A DNA stretch of 35,662 nt from a virus (Duplodnaviria > Heunggongvirae > Uroviricota > Caudoviricetes): positions 1 through 35,662 of IMG/VR virus record IMGVR_UViG_2654587570_000002, one strand, 5' to 3'. This document shows positions 12,081-17,405 of the stretch, piece by piece. Both the position numbers and the translations under genes were made by a program. The notes under the pieces were generated by a model, which saw only the letters and a program-made list of their open reading frames with translations, did not search any database and had not been told where the DNA came from. Position 1 is the first letter of the stretch, and each line of letters opens with the position of its first letter.

Positions 12081-13916
12081 TTACCTGCCAAAGCGCGTAT
12101 AGCCAACATCATGGCTGACATCAAAACCGCTGGATCGCGTTTCCATAACCCGCATACCCGGAGGCGAATTCACAAAAGAGACCTTGATCTCACCATCAAC
12201 TTTTGGCGCAGAAGCTTTGTTAATCATGAAGGGATTCGGGCCTGTGGCATCGGAGGCGTTGTTTGACTGAGCCGGATCTACCGCCGGATAAGGTGTGTAT
12301 CCCCGCGCCGGTATTCCCGTCCCATAAGCATCATAAGCACCCGCGCCCCACTGCGCAGAGTTAATGGCATCGACCGTGTCACCGGAACTGTCGGTAAACC
12401 ACTCAATAATTGGCTTCAGCTTGTCCCACATATTCTGAAACCACTTAACAACCGGTCCCCAGTTATTGATGACCATCCCCAGCGGCGACCAGGCAAAAAC
12501 TTTCTTCAGAAGTTCCCAGCCAGCCTCAAAATAAGGACCAATGGTTTCCCAGAGTTTCTTAAAATAAGGTCCGACAACATCCCAGTTAGTGATAATTAAT
12601 CCCGCAGCCAGGGCTATCGCCGTCGCAATCATGCCAATCGGCGTCATCGACATGATCCTGCTGACAATACTGATGGCACCGCCAACGCCCATCAATCCCA
12701 GTTTCAGAATCGCAAGACCGGCAGCAAGCCCGACGACGCCGCGAATAACCCGGGGATTTTCATCCGCAAACTTCGTGAATTTTTCCCCTAACTCCCCCAG
12801 CCATTGCGTGATATTTTTAGCGTCACCAGAAAATGCGCCGCCAATAGCTGCAAGACCGTTAGTTGCGGTCCCCGTCATTGCCTCCCACAGGTTGGACAGC
12901 GTACCAAGCTGTGCCTGAACACGTTTATTCAGGCTGGCCTGTTTATTCATCTTCTGCTGGATCTGATCGTAGCCATCCTTTCCTTTATCGATTAGTGCAT
13001 TGACCACCTGAAGGGTTTCGGCATCATCACCAAATATTGCCTTAAGTACACCTGTTCGCTTAACGTCGGTCAGTTTTCGCAGCTTTGCCAGTTGCCTGAA
13101 CATGTTATCAAGACCGCCAAAACTTCCTTTGCCGTCAGTAAAATCGAGCTGTACCCCGAGTTTCTGGCGGGCCATGACTTTATTGACGTCCCTGATTTTC
13201 TTAACGCTTAATCCGGACTGGATAACTTTTCGCAGGGCATTACCTGCCGACTCCCCGTTCATCCCCATCTGATCCATCATGACGCTGATGGGGGCAAGGC
13301 TCTGTGCAGCCTGAAGACCGTCCTTGTTCACCATCTTCAGAACAGAGCTGGTTTTAGTGAAGAAGGACAACATGTTGGTATCGTCAACGCCCAGATAAAA
13401 CGCCTTCTGGATAGTGTCGAACAGCCCCATCATGTCTTCTGACGCCGTTCCGGTAGCATCCTGCATCTTTGCGGCAAACTCAGCAGCCGCTTCCGGTGTT
13501 TTTTTCAGTTGTACCGCAAGATAAGCAGTCGCTTTCCCCACACCGCCAAGAATGTTTTCTGCCGGGATCCCCTGACGCACCAGCATCTGCATCATGTTCT
13601 GGAAATCAGCCGTTGTACCGGGTAGCTGGTTACCCAGACCAATAGCCAGTTTATTGATGTCCTGAAAGCTCTTTCCGACCTCACCGTTCGCATCCATCAT
13701 GGCAACTTTCAGCCCGGTGGCGGCGTTTTCCTGATCGGCATAAGATTTCAGGGAAAGCGTCAGACCCGCTGCCAGTCCGCCACCAAGCGCCAGCCCACCC
13801 TGTGACGCTTCTTCCGCCTGGCGTTTAAATCCCCGGATTTTCTTTTGCATTTTCGACAGCGCGGGAGAAAGCCTGTCGACACCGGTGATCAACGCCTTAA
13901 GCTCAAATTCAGCCAT
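12081..13916 (-). CDS. tail tape measure protein
   Basis: 611 aa, Ala/Gly/Gln-rich helical repeats, internal hydrophobic segment, position after the chaperone pair. Confidence 0.8.
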   Translation of the reverse strand: MAEFELKALITGVDRLSPALSKMQKKIRGFKRQAEEASQGGLALGGGLAAGLTLSLKSYADQENAATGLKVAMMDANGEVGKSFQDINKLAIGLGNQLPGTTADFQNMMQMLVRQGIPAENILGGVGKATAYLAVQLKKTPEAAAEFAAKMQDATGTASEDMMGLFDTIQKAFYLGVDDTNMLSFFTKTSSVLKMVNKDGLQAAQSLAPISVMMDQMGMNGESAGNALRKVIQSGLSVKKIRDVNKVMARQKLGVQLDFTDGKGSFGGLDNMFRQLAKLRKLTDVKRTGVLKAIFGDDAETLQVVNALIDKGKDGYDQIQQKMNKQASLNKRVQAQLGTLSNLWEAMTGTATNGLAAIGGAFSGDAKNITQWLGELGEKFTKFADENPRVIRGVVGLAAGLAILKLGLMGVGGAISIVSRIMSMTPIGMIATAIALAAGLIITNWDVVGPYFKKLWETIGPYFEAGWELLKKVFAWSPLGMVINNWGPVVKWFQNMWDKLKPIIEWFTDSSGDTVDAINSAQWGAGAYDAYGTGIPARGYTPYPAVDPAQSNNASDATGPNPFMINKASAPKVDGEIKVSFVNSPPGMRVMETRSSGFDVSHDVGYTRFGR

Positions 13917-14091
13917 GTGTGCGTTTCTCCTGCTCTATCCTGTTTGCCTGACTGACCAGCAAGGGAATTTCACTGATCGGCATATTCAGCAATTCGAAGG
14001 GATTAATGCGCCAGTAGCTGGCGCAGTCAAAGAAGCGATCAGTGAGGTATTCAGCCGTCAGGCCTGGAGGAAAAAACCGGCCACAAGCCAC
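13909..14091 (-). CDS. tail assembly chaperone frameshift extension (T-like part)
   Basis: -1 frame ORF overlapping the 3' end of the chaperone gene and the start of the tape measure gene; slippery T_TTT_TTC at 14070-14076. Confidence 0.5.
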   Translation of the reverse strand: MACGRFFPPGLTAEYLTDRFFDCASYWRINPFELLNMPISEIPLLVSQANRIEQEKRTHG

Positions 14092-14327
14092 GCCGCTGCA
14101 TTCAGGTCTGCCGGAGACATCTGGTCGACAGAGTTTTGCGGCACTTTCGCCAGCCGCACAATGTATTTCGATACCACATGCGCCAGAAGTCTGACGGACT
14201 CATCCTGATTCATCTGGTAGGGATACCCCAGCTCGCGGACATCTTTCCCGGTGGGCTCATCAAACTCCAGTACGGAGAGTGTCTCGCCATGAGCGGTAAT
14301 CGGTTTCTTTAACTCAAGCTCTTTCAT
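14058..14327 (-). CDS. tail assembly chaperone (Mu gp41-like, G-like part)
   Basis: 89 aa ORF between tail tube and tape measure genes, the conserved chaperone position. Confidence 0.65.
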   Translation of the reverse strand: MKELELKKPITAHGETLSVLEFDEPTGKDVRELGYPYQMNQDESVRLLAHVVSKYIVRLAKVPQNSVDQMSPADLNAAAWLVAGFFLQA

Positions 14328-14683
14328 TACTGGTAATCCCCTTCTTCACCGTGGAACTCAAGATCGACCGTGCCTTCTTCGGCATTATGGTTCGCTTCGC
14401 CGTGCAGCCAGGCAGACGACAGTACATAGACCTGACCGTTCGCCAGCTCGGCAGTGATGGTCATCTCATCAGACGAGGTGATTTTGCTCACCGGAAAATT
14501 CTTCGGCACCTTGAAGGTCCCTTTGACATAAGGCGCACGGTGAGTTTCCTTGCGGTCCACTGAACCGTCCAGGCCGATGATGTCATCATTGACCGTCCTG
14601 TTCATGGGCACCTCAATGCCGCCGGTCAGCGATAGCTGCTGACCGTCAATTTTGAAATAACAGGTTCCCCCGATACGGGCCAT
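14327..14683 (-). CDS. contractile tail tube protein (Mu gp40-like)
   Basis: 118 aa ORF immediately after the sheath gene with ATGA-type overlap. Confidence 0.7.
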   Translation of the reverse strand: MARIGGTCYFKIDGQQLSLTGGIEVPMNRTVNDDIIGLDGSVDRKETHRAPYVKGTFKVPKNFPVSKITSSDEMTITAELANGQVYVLSSAWLHGEANHNAEEGTVDLEFHGEEGDYQ

Positions 14684-16179
14684 TATGCAGACTCCTCTGA
14701 ATACTGAAGACGGAACTGATTAACCACGGCAAAGACACGCAGCTGGTTAACATAGTCAGGCGGGAACAGCGTGTTCAGGCGGTTCGGATCGCTGGCATCA
14801 CGCTCCACAACCAGGTACTGCTTAAACAGTTCGTAGTTTTCCACGATCCCCGCACGCTCAAGCTGACGGTAGGTTGCCAGCAGTTCCCCTTTGATCACCG
14901 CCGGGGTGACAATCGCCTGACCGGGACCAAAGCGGGTACCGTCACTGGCAAGCTTGTGACGCCCGTACTTACTGGTAATGACGGATTTCAGTTTGCGCAG
15001 TACATACGCGCTGGTATGCAGCGTCTCACTGTCGAGGTAACTGTTATCCGCAACCCCGTAAGCGTTTTTCCTGTACGTGGTGACATCACGCTGAATGCGT
15101 AGTACCCCGTTTTCGACATACGCCGTTGCCACGCCATGAGACAGCAGGGTCTGTTGTTCGGTCATCGTGAACCGTTTCCCCTTCGGCGCAGGCAGCATAC
15201 CCACCAGCTCACCGGTCTGCGTGGGACGTGCCGGATCGTTGCGGATAAACACCGCTGCGCGGGCGGTACGGCTTGCCGCCAGCTCGTCGGCAGGCGTCTG
15301 GGTCTCTTTTTCGTACCCCGCTAGGGTAATGTGCTGCTGGTTAAACTGGTCACCTGCGGTCACCAGTTCTGACAGCGTGCCGATCTTTGCCGTATACACA
15401 TGACCATACAGCTGACGCGCATAGCTCCAGCGACCGCTGGTATCGTTCATCTCGGTCACCAGCGTGTTAACGGAGGCCGTGTCGTTGAACGGCAGGCCGA
15501 TATAATCAAACGGCTCATCCGCCATTGCAGCCACCGCGCCGGTGAGAACAGGAGAGCCCGTTCCGGCGGTCCCCGTCGCCACGGCAATCTGTACGCCCGC
15601 AGGCAGCACTTCGCCCCCACCAAAGCCGTAGTAATTGAGGCTGACAGGAATTTCATTCCCGCAAAGCCCCTTATGACGCGCGGTCAGTGTGACCACGCCA
15701 GCCGAAGATGAGGCCGTAAACGGCAGGGCCGGAACGGCATTGATGGCATCCTGGATACTGCTGGCAATCGTCGTGACGTTATCGCCGTTAGTCACCGGTG
15801 CCTGCACGCGGGTACGTCCCACATAAACATTCACCGTGCCGGTTTCGGTTGCCGCCCCGGTCACCGTCAGCGTAACTGTTGCCGCCGCGCCCGTGGATTC
15901 AGGAACGGCAATTACATACAGTTCACCAAACGGGTCGGTCTGGCGATAAGCCTCGACCATACGCGCCAGCTGACTTCCCGCACCACAAATCTGGCGTGCA
16001 TAGTCTGCCGACGGCATCAGCACCAGACTGTTGGCAACAATCTCTGCACCGTTATTGGCATGACCAATCAGCAGCGATGCTCCGCTGTCCTGTGCAGTAT
16101 TCGCCGCCTGGTTATCCATTTCCGCATAAAACAGCGGAACCAGCGTATTCGACGGAATGGTGTTAAAGCTTATCGTCAT
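14683..16179 (-). CDS. contractile tail sheath protein (Mu gp39/L-like)
   Basis: 498 aa, Thr/Gly/Ala-rich beta-rich sequence typical of sheath proteins; synteny. Confidence 0.85.
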   Translation of the reverse strand: MTISFNTIPSNTLVPLFYAEMDNQAANTAQDSGASLLIGHANNGAEIVANSLVLMPSADYARQICGAGSQLARMVEAYRQTDPFGELYVIAVPESTGAAATVTLTVTGAATETGTVNVYVGRTRVQAPVTNGDNVTTIASSIQDAINAVPALPFTASSSAGVVTLTARHKGLCGNEIPVSLNYYGFGGGEVLPAGVQIAVATGTAGTGSPVLTGAVAAMADEPFDYIGLPFNDTASVNTLVTEMNDTSGRWSYARQLYGHVYTAKIGTLSELVTAGDQFNQQHITLAGYEKETQTPADELAASRTARAAVFIRNDPARPTQTGELVGMLPAPKGKRFTMTEQQTLLSHGVATAYVENGVLRIQRDVTTYRKNAYGVADNSYLDSETLHTSAYVLRKLKSVITSKYGRHKLASDGTRFGPGQAIVTPAVIKGELLATYRQLERAGIVENYELFKQYLVVERDASDPNRLNTLFPPDYVNQLRVFAVVNQFRLQYSEESA

Positions 16180-16902: not shown

Positions 16903-17405
16903 CTGTGTCGTCGCTCCGGCTTCAGTGATTTACGCAATTCCCGCGCCAGAAAATAGCGTGTCCAGCTGTGGTTCTTTTCAAGCGTTTCCACCATGAAGTT
17001 ATTACGTGGAGCCAGTCGCCAGCCTCTGCCACCGGATGCACCACGATGATGGCTGCGACGACGCTTTGCCCCTCTCTTCACGCCATAGAACAAAAAAGCC
17101 GGATAAAAATCACCGGTGATGCGGCGGTTTCCCTCACCATTACGCTGGTTAGGGGCTATACGTGCCATAAAACCAGGGCGATGTTTACTGGCTCTGGGTA
17201 CCATGTAACCAATCGAACGAGCCAGGCGTCCGGTCTGATAACCGGGGTTTTCACCCGGTGCCGACCGCGCACGGCGCATCACCAGCCGACGGGCATCACG
17301 CATATGACGCTGACCAATCGTGACAAACGCCCGCCGGACACGGGCGCGGTTAAAGCGCATCTCCGCGGGCTGCTGAAAATCAACGTGCAAAAAGGAAGTC
17401 GTCAT
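16899..17405 (-). CDS. tail completion / virion morphogenesis protein (HK97 gp10-like?)
   Basis: 168 aa Arg-rich protein in the neck module position. Confidence 0.45.
   Translation of the reverse strand: MTTSFLHVDFQQPAEMRFNRARVRRAFVTIGQRHMRDARRLVMRRARSAPGENPGYQTGRLARSIGYMVPRASKHRPGFMARIAPNQRNGEGNRRITGDFYPAFLFYGVKRGAKRRRSHHRGASGGRGWRLAPRNNFMVETLEKNHSWTRYFLARELRKSLKPERRHR

Follow-up and report, generated by a model that had tools for sequence, protein, structure and literature searches.

Does the tail assembly chaperone gene of this phage yield one protein or two? The window, by which we mean the whole 35,662-nucleotide stretch of DNA analysed here, carries on its minus strand a chaperone gene whose 3′ end is overlapped by a second open reading frame (ORF) in the −1 frame, and a slippery heptamer lies in the overlap. 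We propose that this gene very probably undergoes programmed −1 ribosomal frameshifting of the lambda G/GT and P2 E/E+E′ type. Judged by its sequence, the site is an ordinary case of a mechanism of a kind already known, real and deeply conserved. At 98-99% identity, the region matches the temperate myophages SfV, SfI, SfII, vB_EcoM-689R6, and SKA5 of Shigella and E. coli, and on that identity the window is an SfV/SfI/SfII-like temperate myophage. Its tail module is present, as prophage, in 919 of 5,426 complete E. coli genomes (~17%).

The tail gene block and the predicted fusion

The features of the tail gene block are collected in Table 1. The initial annotation had described a chaperone ORF, a 60-codon −1 ORF running into the tape measure start, and a T_TTT_TTC heptamer, and all three stand exactly where it had put them. 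The chaperone matches Pfam family PF10109 (Phage_TAC_7; full name 'Phage tail assembly chaperone proteins, E, or 41 or 14') with E=3.6e-16 and 59.4 bits against a cutoff of 25, over profile positions 2-78 of 79. Its match in PHROGs is phrog_166, 'tail protein' (E=2e-23). Reading along the minus strand, the order is sheath, tube, chaperone, −1 ORF, and tape measure, and then a Mu-type DNA circulation protein and a gp44-like baseplate hub. Because a sheath gene is present, the tail is contractile (myovirus type). Adjacent genes share a single base between stop and start (TAATG-type) at the sheath/tube junction (14683) and at the tube/chaperone junction (14327), and the block from sheath to tape measure looks translationally coupled.

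Table 1. Features of the tail gene block in the window, in minus-strand order
Feature	Position	Strand	Description
Tail sheath gene	14683..16179	−	498 aa; PF04984, PF17482, PF17481; phrog_165
Tail tube gene	14327..14683	−	118 aa; directly upstream of chaperone; PF10618 E=2e-33; phrog_185
Tail assembly chaperone gene, zero frame	14058..14327	−	89 aa; equivalent to lambda G, P2 E
−1 frame second ORF from GTG	14091-13909	−	60 codons; phrog_32181 (unknown function), E=3e-41
Slippery heptamer T_TTT_TTC	14070..14076	−	X_XXY_YYZ register; zero-frame TGA 9 nt on
−1 frame extension	13909..14070	−	53 codons + stop, PPGLTAEYLTDRFFDCASYWRINPFELLNMPISEIPLLVSQANRIEQEKRTHG*; equivalent to lambda T, P2 E′
Tape measure protein gene	12081..13916	−	611 aa; PF10145 E=1e-26; phrog_17727, phrog_28

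The zero frame of the chaperone ends in GCC GGT TTT TTC CTC CAG GCC TGA, with the heptamer three codons before the stop. Read 5′ to 3′ at 14076-14070, the heptamer puts TTT in the P site and TTC in the A site. A −1 shift here would give a fusion CDS of complement(join(13909..14070,14070..14327)), in which base 14070 is read twice. The predicted product has 139 aa (~15.8 kDa), and its first 86 residues are common to the chaperone. Around the shift site it would read …AGFF-PPGLTAEYLTDRFFDCASYWRINPFELLNMPISEIPLLVSQANRIEQEKRTHG*; it contains …AGFFPPGLTAEYLTDR… and its junction peptide is …NAAAWLVAGFFPPGLTAEYLTDR. The TGA of the −1 extension (13911-13909) and the tape measure ATG (13916-13914) lie in an 8-nt overlap of the two genes (13909-13916, ATGGCTGA), which the initial annotation had described as the −1 ORF running into the tape measure start. 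An AGGAG is found at 13931-13927, 5′ of that ATG.

How would two proteins arise from this arrangement? Most ribosomes would read GGU UUU UUC CUC CAG GCC UGA through to the release of the 89-aa chaperone. A small fraction would slip with tRNA-Phe in both the P site (UUU) and the A site (UUC), and both tRNAs would move back one base and re-pair with UUU UUU. Reading would then continue as CCU CCA GGC CUG… for 53 more codons, up to the UGA that overlaps the tape measure AUG, and the minority product would be the 139-aa protein. By analogy with lambda (PMC5009743), the shared N-terminal part would coat the tape measure protein, and the C-terminal extension would recruit the tube protein. Tube and sheath would then polymerise to the length set by the tape measure. 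On the same analogy, neither form of the chaperone would stay in the virion; the lambda G and GT products are absent from virions according to PMC5009743.

Family and structure searches added little to this picture. The extension matched nothing credible in Pfam or NCBIfam at E<=10. A PDB sequence search with the fusion profile returned a sole match, to a phycobilisome (E=0.013), which is spurious, and so yielded no sequence-related solved structure. Structure prediction of the fusion from a shallow alignment was too poor, with a mean pLDDT of 48.6. Several database proteins that looked like in-frame fusions (P0001-P0006) were rejected; they are error-ridden singleton metagenome assemblies with indels at several different places.

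Conservation of the heptamer and of the −1 frame

How much does a slippery heptamer at this place tell us? In one genome alone it is weak evidence, because in-register heptamers are frequent by chance: ORFs of at least 100 aa in the window hold 35 of them, spurious ORFs included. Others lie in likely real genes, and one of these, T_TTT_TTG at 17097 on the minus strand (ORF 17405-16899), has a −1 frame open for 29 codons. What takes the chaperone site beyond chance is its position, in the gap between the tube and tape measure genes with a −1 ORF that ends on the tape measure start, together with its conservation.

To measure conservation, we compared 20 loci from a one-genome-per-species collection with three phage records and the window, which together make 22 distinct sequences. 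Chaperone identity in this set runs from 99% to 38%, with hosts as far apart as Enterobacterales and the betaproteobacterium Derxia; the sequences are related, and counts over them are not independent trials. Every one of them has GGT TTT TT[C/T] at the homologous place (GGT 22/22, TTT 22/22, TTC or TTT 22/22). The codons next to it vary among synonyms. The alanine codon before GGT is GCC, GCT, GCG, or GCA (8/4/4/4), and the valine codon before the alanine appears as four synonyms. The conserved G-F-F peptide accounts for part of this nucleotide conservation, but not for the codon choice. Invariant heptamer codons beside varying neighbours therefore reveal a constraint at the nucleotide level that goes beyond the peptide. 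Across the set, the slip site keeps its place relative to the chaperone start, 242-251 nt away, but not relative to the zero-frame stop, which lies 9, 24, 27, or 42 nt on.

The same register recurs outside this set. TTTTTTC is in register in 78 of 80 near-identical IMG/VR contigs. SfIV, ST64B, phiP27, BgVeeders33 (Burkholderia), DVM-2008 and PG1 (Pseudomonas), PBb002 (Bordetella), and P2 all have an in-register T_TTT_TT[T/C/G] at the homologous place, and in these seven other lineages and P2 the −1 ORF either stops at the tape measure start or overlaps it. The initial annotation had called the layout a conserved G/GT-type arrangement, and it is indeed found in every relative examined, P2 included.

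This register bears directly on the alternative that survives best, namely that RNA polymerase slips rather than the ribosome. Polymerase would add one U on the T6 run, and a minority of mRNAs would encode the 139-aa fusion in one frame. The site is a homopolymer run, T6 in the window and T7 in some relatives (L020/L021, SfIV, ST64B, and phiP27), and one inserted U would give GGU UUU UUU CCU, or G-F-F-P, a peptide identical to that from ribosomal slippage. A contig that we call L077 keeps T6 outside the heptamer register. Moreover, E. coli genes are short of U7 in each of the three frames, a deficit that has been put down partly to transcriptional slippage (PMC4066793). Against this, the xxT TTT TTN register is kept throughout the 22 sequences, the seven other lineages, P2, and those 78 of 80 contigs, even where the upstream residue differs (R, N, S, P, or D). 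Only tandem tRNA slippage needs the register, so its retention speaks against polymerase slippage. The P2 record, too, labels its counterpart of this site a translational frameshift. A run of six Ts is also short: as a rule, E. coli RNA polymerase slips efficiently only on runs of ~8-9 or more. On balance, we regard transcriptional slippage as improbable and infer that slippage at this site is ribosomal.

Is the −1 frame maintained as a protein? In every sequence of the 22, it is open for 125-149 nt beyond the zero-frame stop. The +1 frame meets a stop within 7-82 nt, except in the most distant member, Derxia L025 (38% identity), where it is open for 154 nt. The −1 product is conserved down to 35% identity of the fusion protein (38% for the chaperone alone), and it has invariant A, W, P, L, A, R, and I positions. 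Variable sites fall on the three codon positions as 28/18/39 in the −1 frame and as 24/17/63 in the zero frame upstream. The initial annotation had made its proposal depend in part on conservation of the second ORF in related phages. That expectation was borne out, as the 22-sequence set has a conserved domain with the motif FDCAxYWRInPxExL…QANRI.

Another reading makes the second ORF a small gene in its own right, with translation starting at a GTG of its own. A GTG does stand in the −1 frame at 14091, one phage record (ON470584) carries the ORF as a separate CDS, and phrog_32181 and 10 database clusters consist of such calls. However, no Shine-Dalgarno sequence precedes the GTG, and the −1 protein becomes conserved only beyond the heptamer rather than from the GTG onward. 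From its upstream stop to the heptamer, the −1 frame is free of ATG, GTG, and TTG codons in 13 of the 22 sequences, which leaves the shift as the sole conserved route to the extension there. Where a start is present, it differs (GTG, ATG, or TTG). As a separate gene, the second ORF forms only 10 clusters in a 5.8-billion-protein collection; the chaperone forms at least 158. We consider an independent gene highly improbable. A chance open frame or evolutionary relic, with only the 89-aa chaperone made or needed, is likewise very hard to credit: the motif has a low intrinsic efficiency, and in-register heptamers and −1 ORFs of 40-60 codons arise elsewhere in the window by chance, but the −1 protein is conserved to 35% fusion identity with variation biased to third positions, the tape measure start is where the −1 frame ends in every case, and the P2 record describes the homologous E+E′ as essential.

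Individual contigs depart from the common form. In L077 (IMGVR_UViG_2585427757_000001, ~1750-1762), GCT GGG TTT TTT CTC replaces GCT GGT TTT TTC CTC. The zero-frame protein is unchanged and T6 is kept, the X_XXY_YYZ register is lost, and the extension would start SPGL, not PPGL. This is either a real variant that uses A-site-only (U_UUU) or transcriptional slippage, or the result of paired homopolymer sequencing errors. In L075 (IMGVR_UViG_2541047860_000003), the −1 ORF becomes abruptly unrelated after …NPFELLN and is open for >500 codons, a sign that an insertion or rearrangement may have broken up both the chaperone extension and the junction with the tape measure gene. Finally, the second tape measure codon is GCG rather than GCT in 11 of the 80 contigs (L059, L062, L064, L070, L071, L074, L090, L094, L096, L103, and L104). 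In these, the overlapping TGA is gone and the extension is two residues longer (…HGGI*). The 8-nt overlap is thus the common state rather than a requirement.

RNA structure and the expected rate of slippage

Does the RNA around the heptamer help the ribosome to slip? A downstream stimulatory structure had been put forward in the initial annotation as something to look for, and folds, shuffles, and RNAalifold all failed to find one, as is likewise reported for P2 (PMC3091744). Single-sequence folds of 97 nt and 50 nt contained no stimulator at the canonical spacing of 5-9 nt. The 50 nt after the heptamer fold at −6.5 kcal/mol, no better than shuffled sequences (mean −8.1, z=+0.7). RNAalifold on 16 homologues gave no conserved structure at the canonical spacing and just 4 pairs, far downstream. 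A 4-bp GGCC/GGCU stem 5 nt downstream is weak and is not maintained. On the upstream side, RNAalifold on 19 homologues found no conserved pairs, and no Shine-Dalgarno-like motif is seen before the heptamer in the window sequence. A search of Rfam gave no match at E<=1. We also considered and rejected a terminator-like hairpin, UGGCU-UGU-GGCCG (14090-14078, minus strand), directly before the U-run; there are 2 such matches against 1.0±1.1 in shuffled sequence, and the pairing is not conserved.

A perfect 8-bp GC-rich hairpin, UGCGCCAG-CUA-CUGGCGCA, is present at 14025-14007 on the minus strand (about −13.7 kcal/mol). It falls within the part of the −1 extension that encodes DCASYWRI and, at 44 nt downstream of the heptamer, is too distant for a canonical stimulator. 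The third codon positions of the stem (TGC, GCC, TAC, CGC) are invariant in an 11-sequence SfV-like alignment. The stem is weakened or lost in L018, L019, L022, SfIV, ST64B, and phiP27, with no compensatory changes. We think it unlikely that this hairpin has been selected as an RNA element; more probably it comes with the DCASYWRI peptide as a by-product. If it were selected, it could tune frameshift-dependent translation or tape measure initiation in the mostly ribosome-free stretch from the chaperone stop to the tape measure start. P2 has an unrelated hairpin of −16.5 kcal/mol at the analogous place in E′.

GC-rich distant relatives have a strong hairpin only 1-2 nt after the heptamer. These are L020 (1750-1770; an uncultured proteobacterium) and L025 (1750-1790; Derxia gummosa), whose hairpins reach −21 and −22 kcal/mol (z=−2.8 and −2.3 against shuffles). 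Nothing comparable is seen in the window or its enterobacterial relatives. Each may be a lineage-specific stimulator or simply GC-rich sequence. If they are stimulators, such elements would have been gained or lost within the family.

How often would ribosomes slip at this heptamer? Because no stimulator is present in the window, the most probable rate is from roughly 0.1% to a few percent. In an E. coli reporter (PMC4066793 supplement), the window motif UUUUUUC gave 0.121% without a stimulator, only about twice the background of about 0.055% obtained with no motif. With the IS3 pseudoknot, it gave 7.6%, against about 0.069% with no motif. The P2 motif UUUUUUG gave 0.118% without and 0.765% with the pseudoknot, and the lambda motif GGGAAAG gave 0.277% and 43.0% (PMC4066793 supplement). 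A low intrinsic rate of the motif is no argument against function, since lambda still makes G and GT at about 30:1 (PMC5009743).

Relation to known systems and to current annotation

Which known system does the predicted frameshift most resemble? The G/GT type, as Xu, Hendrix & Duda are said to have set it out in 2004, reportedly gives a short and a fused product at a constant ratio, of which tail assembly needs both and virions contain neither. In the window, two overlapping ORFs lie between the tube and tape measure genes, T_TTT_TTC precedes the TGA by 9 nt, and the second ORF has no conserved initiation signal and is conserved as protein. A PF10109 match above the gathering threshold, a −1 shift site of the form T_TTT_TTN at G-F-x, and an extension stop that overlaps the tape measure start point further to the P2 subfamily.

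On these comparisons, the closest relative is P2 E/E+E′. In P2 these genes belong to the FETUD tail operon, and the P2 record holds E (91 aa) and E+E′ (142 aa), with a −1 shift at GGT TTT TTG and a stop that overlaps T by 8 nt, and it notes that E+E′ is an essential tail protein. The tube gene (FII in P2), chaperone, and tape measure gene follow in the same order in both phages. In both, the N-terminal part is PF10109, the codon context is GGT TTT TTN (G-F-[F/L]), and the overlap with the tape measure gene is 8 nt; the product sizes are 89/139 aa in the window and 91/142 aa in P2. Both also lack a downstream structure, the window in our folds and P2 according to PMC3091744, which has P2 producing E and E+E′ from a TTTTTTG site. 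An hhalign comparison of the fusion alignment with P2 E+E′ was collinear through both parts over 119 columns at ~24% identity (E=1e-4), with a probability of only 58%. P2 E′ and the window extension share the pattern D-x-A…[FW]-x-x-x-P-x-E-L…M…E…A-x-R.

P2 and the window also differ. The last base of the heptamer is G in P2 and C in the window, which makes the A-site codon Leu in the one and Phe in the other. The rest of the window tail (baseplate, DNA circulation protein) is Mu-like, not P2-like.

Lambda is a more distant parallel. As predicted for the window, lambda places a chaperone and a frameshift-extended chaperone, gpG and gpGT, between its major tail gene and its tape measure gene. 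However, the lambda heptamer is G_GGA_AAG and the lambda tail is non-contractile. We detected no sequence homology with lambda gpG/gpGT, and the sole Pfam match of the window chaperone is PF10109, the E/41/14 family. The partner of the window extension would be a tube protein within a sheath, not gpV.

The initial annotation had instead named the Mu gp41 region as the comparison to make. The two phages have homologous tail genes around this place (sheath L, tube M, DNA circulation protein, and gp44-like hub), and gp41 occupies the same place between the tube (M) and tape measure genes. However, Mu gp41 has 144 aa and lacks a T-run, and the frame that encodes its extension is +1; PMC5009743 and PMC2628397 report that a −2 shift leads there. 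The Mu type combines a +1-frame extension, a −2 shift, and a G-rich site, and the +1 frame of the window closes 7 nt past the stop. Because the Mu extension lies in the other frame, gp41 was the wrong comparator, and P2 E/E+E′ fits in its place.

What of frameshifting outside phage tails? The dnaX and IS3/IS911 signals of E. coli share with the site proposed here tandem tRNA slippage on an X_XXY_YYZ heptamer. They add to the heptamer an upstream Shine-Dalgarno-like element, a downstream hairpin or pseudoknot, or both, and frameshift at rates of tens of percent. The window differs in having neither the upstream element nor the downstream structure, and it falls outside this stimulated type of −1 frameshifting. 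U_UUU_UUC itself is used by some IS elements (PMC4066793).

Current records do not reflect the predicted fusion. None of the public records inspected for the SfV-like group annotates slippage, and none encodes the fusion. The SfV record gives orf13 as 'unknown' and then a gap, and RefSeq/PGAP gives an 89-aa 'phage tail assembly protein' and then a gap. In the vB_EcoM-689R6 record (ON470584), the second ORF is a separate CDS for a 60-aa hypothetical protein. The ~140 nt from the chaperone stop to the tape measure start are unannotated in inspected PGAP/GenBank records, for example NZ_CP033092.2 (1244949-1245360) and U82619.2 (9363-9774).

Why does the site matter? The predicted frameshift site in the chaperone gene opens no new biological question, and its value is practical, not conceptual. 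For the PF10109 lineages examined, we suggest a simple annotation rule: look for GGT/xxT TTT TTN ~245 nt into the gene, and follow the −1 frame to the tape measure ATG. Among the phages examined, Mu is the exception, with another site and another frame. For a very common E. coli/Shigella prophage family, the gain is an annotation correction: a join at 14070 would correct the SfV-like records, including those of the Shigella serotype-converting phages SfV, SfI, and SfII.
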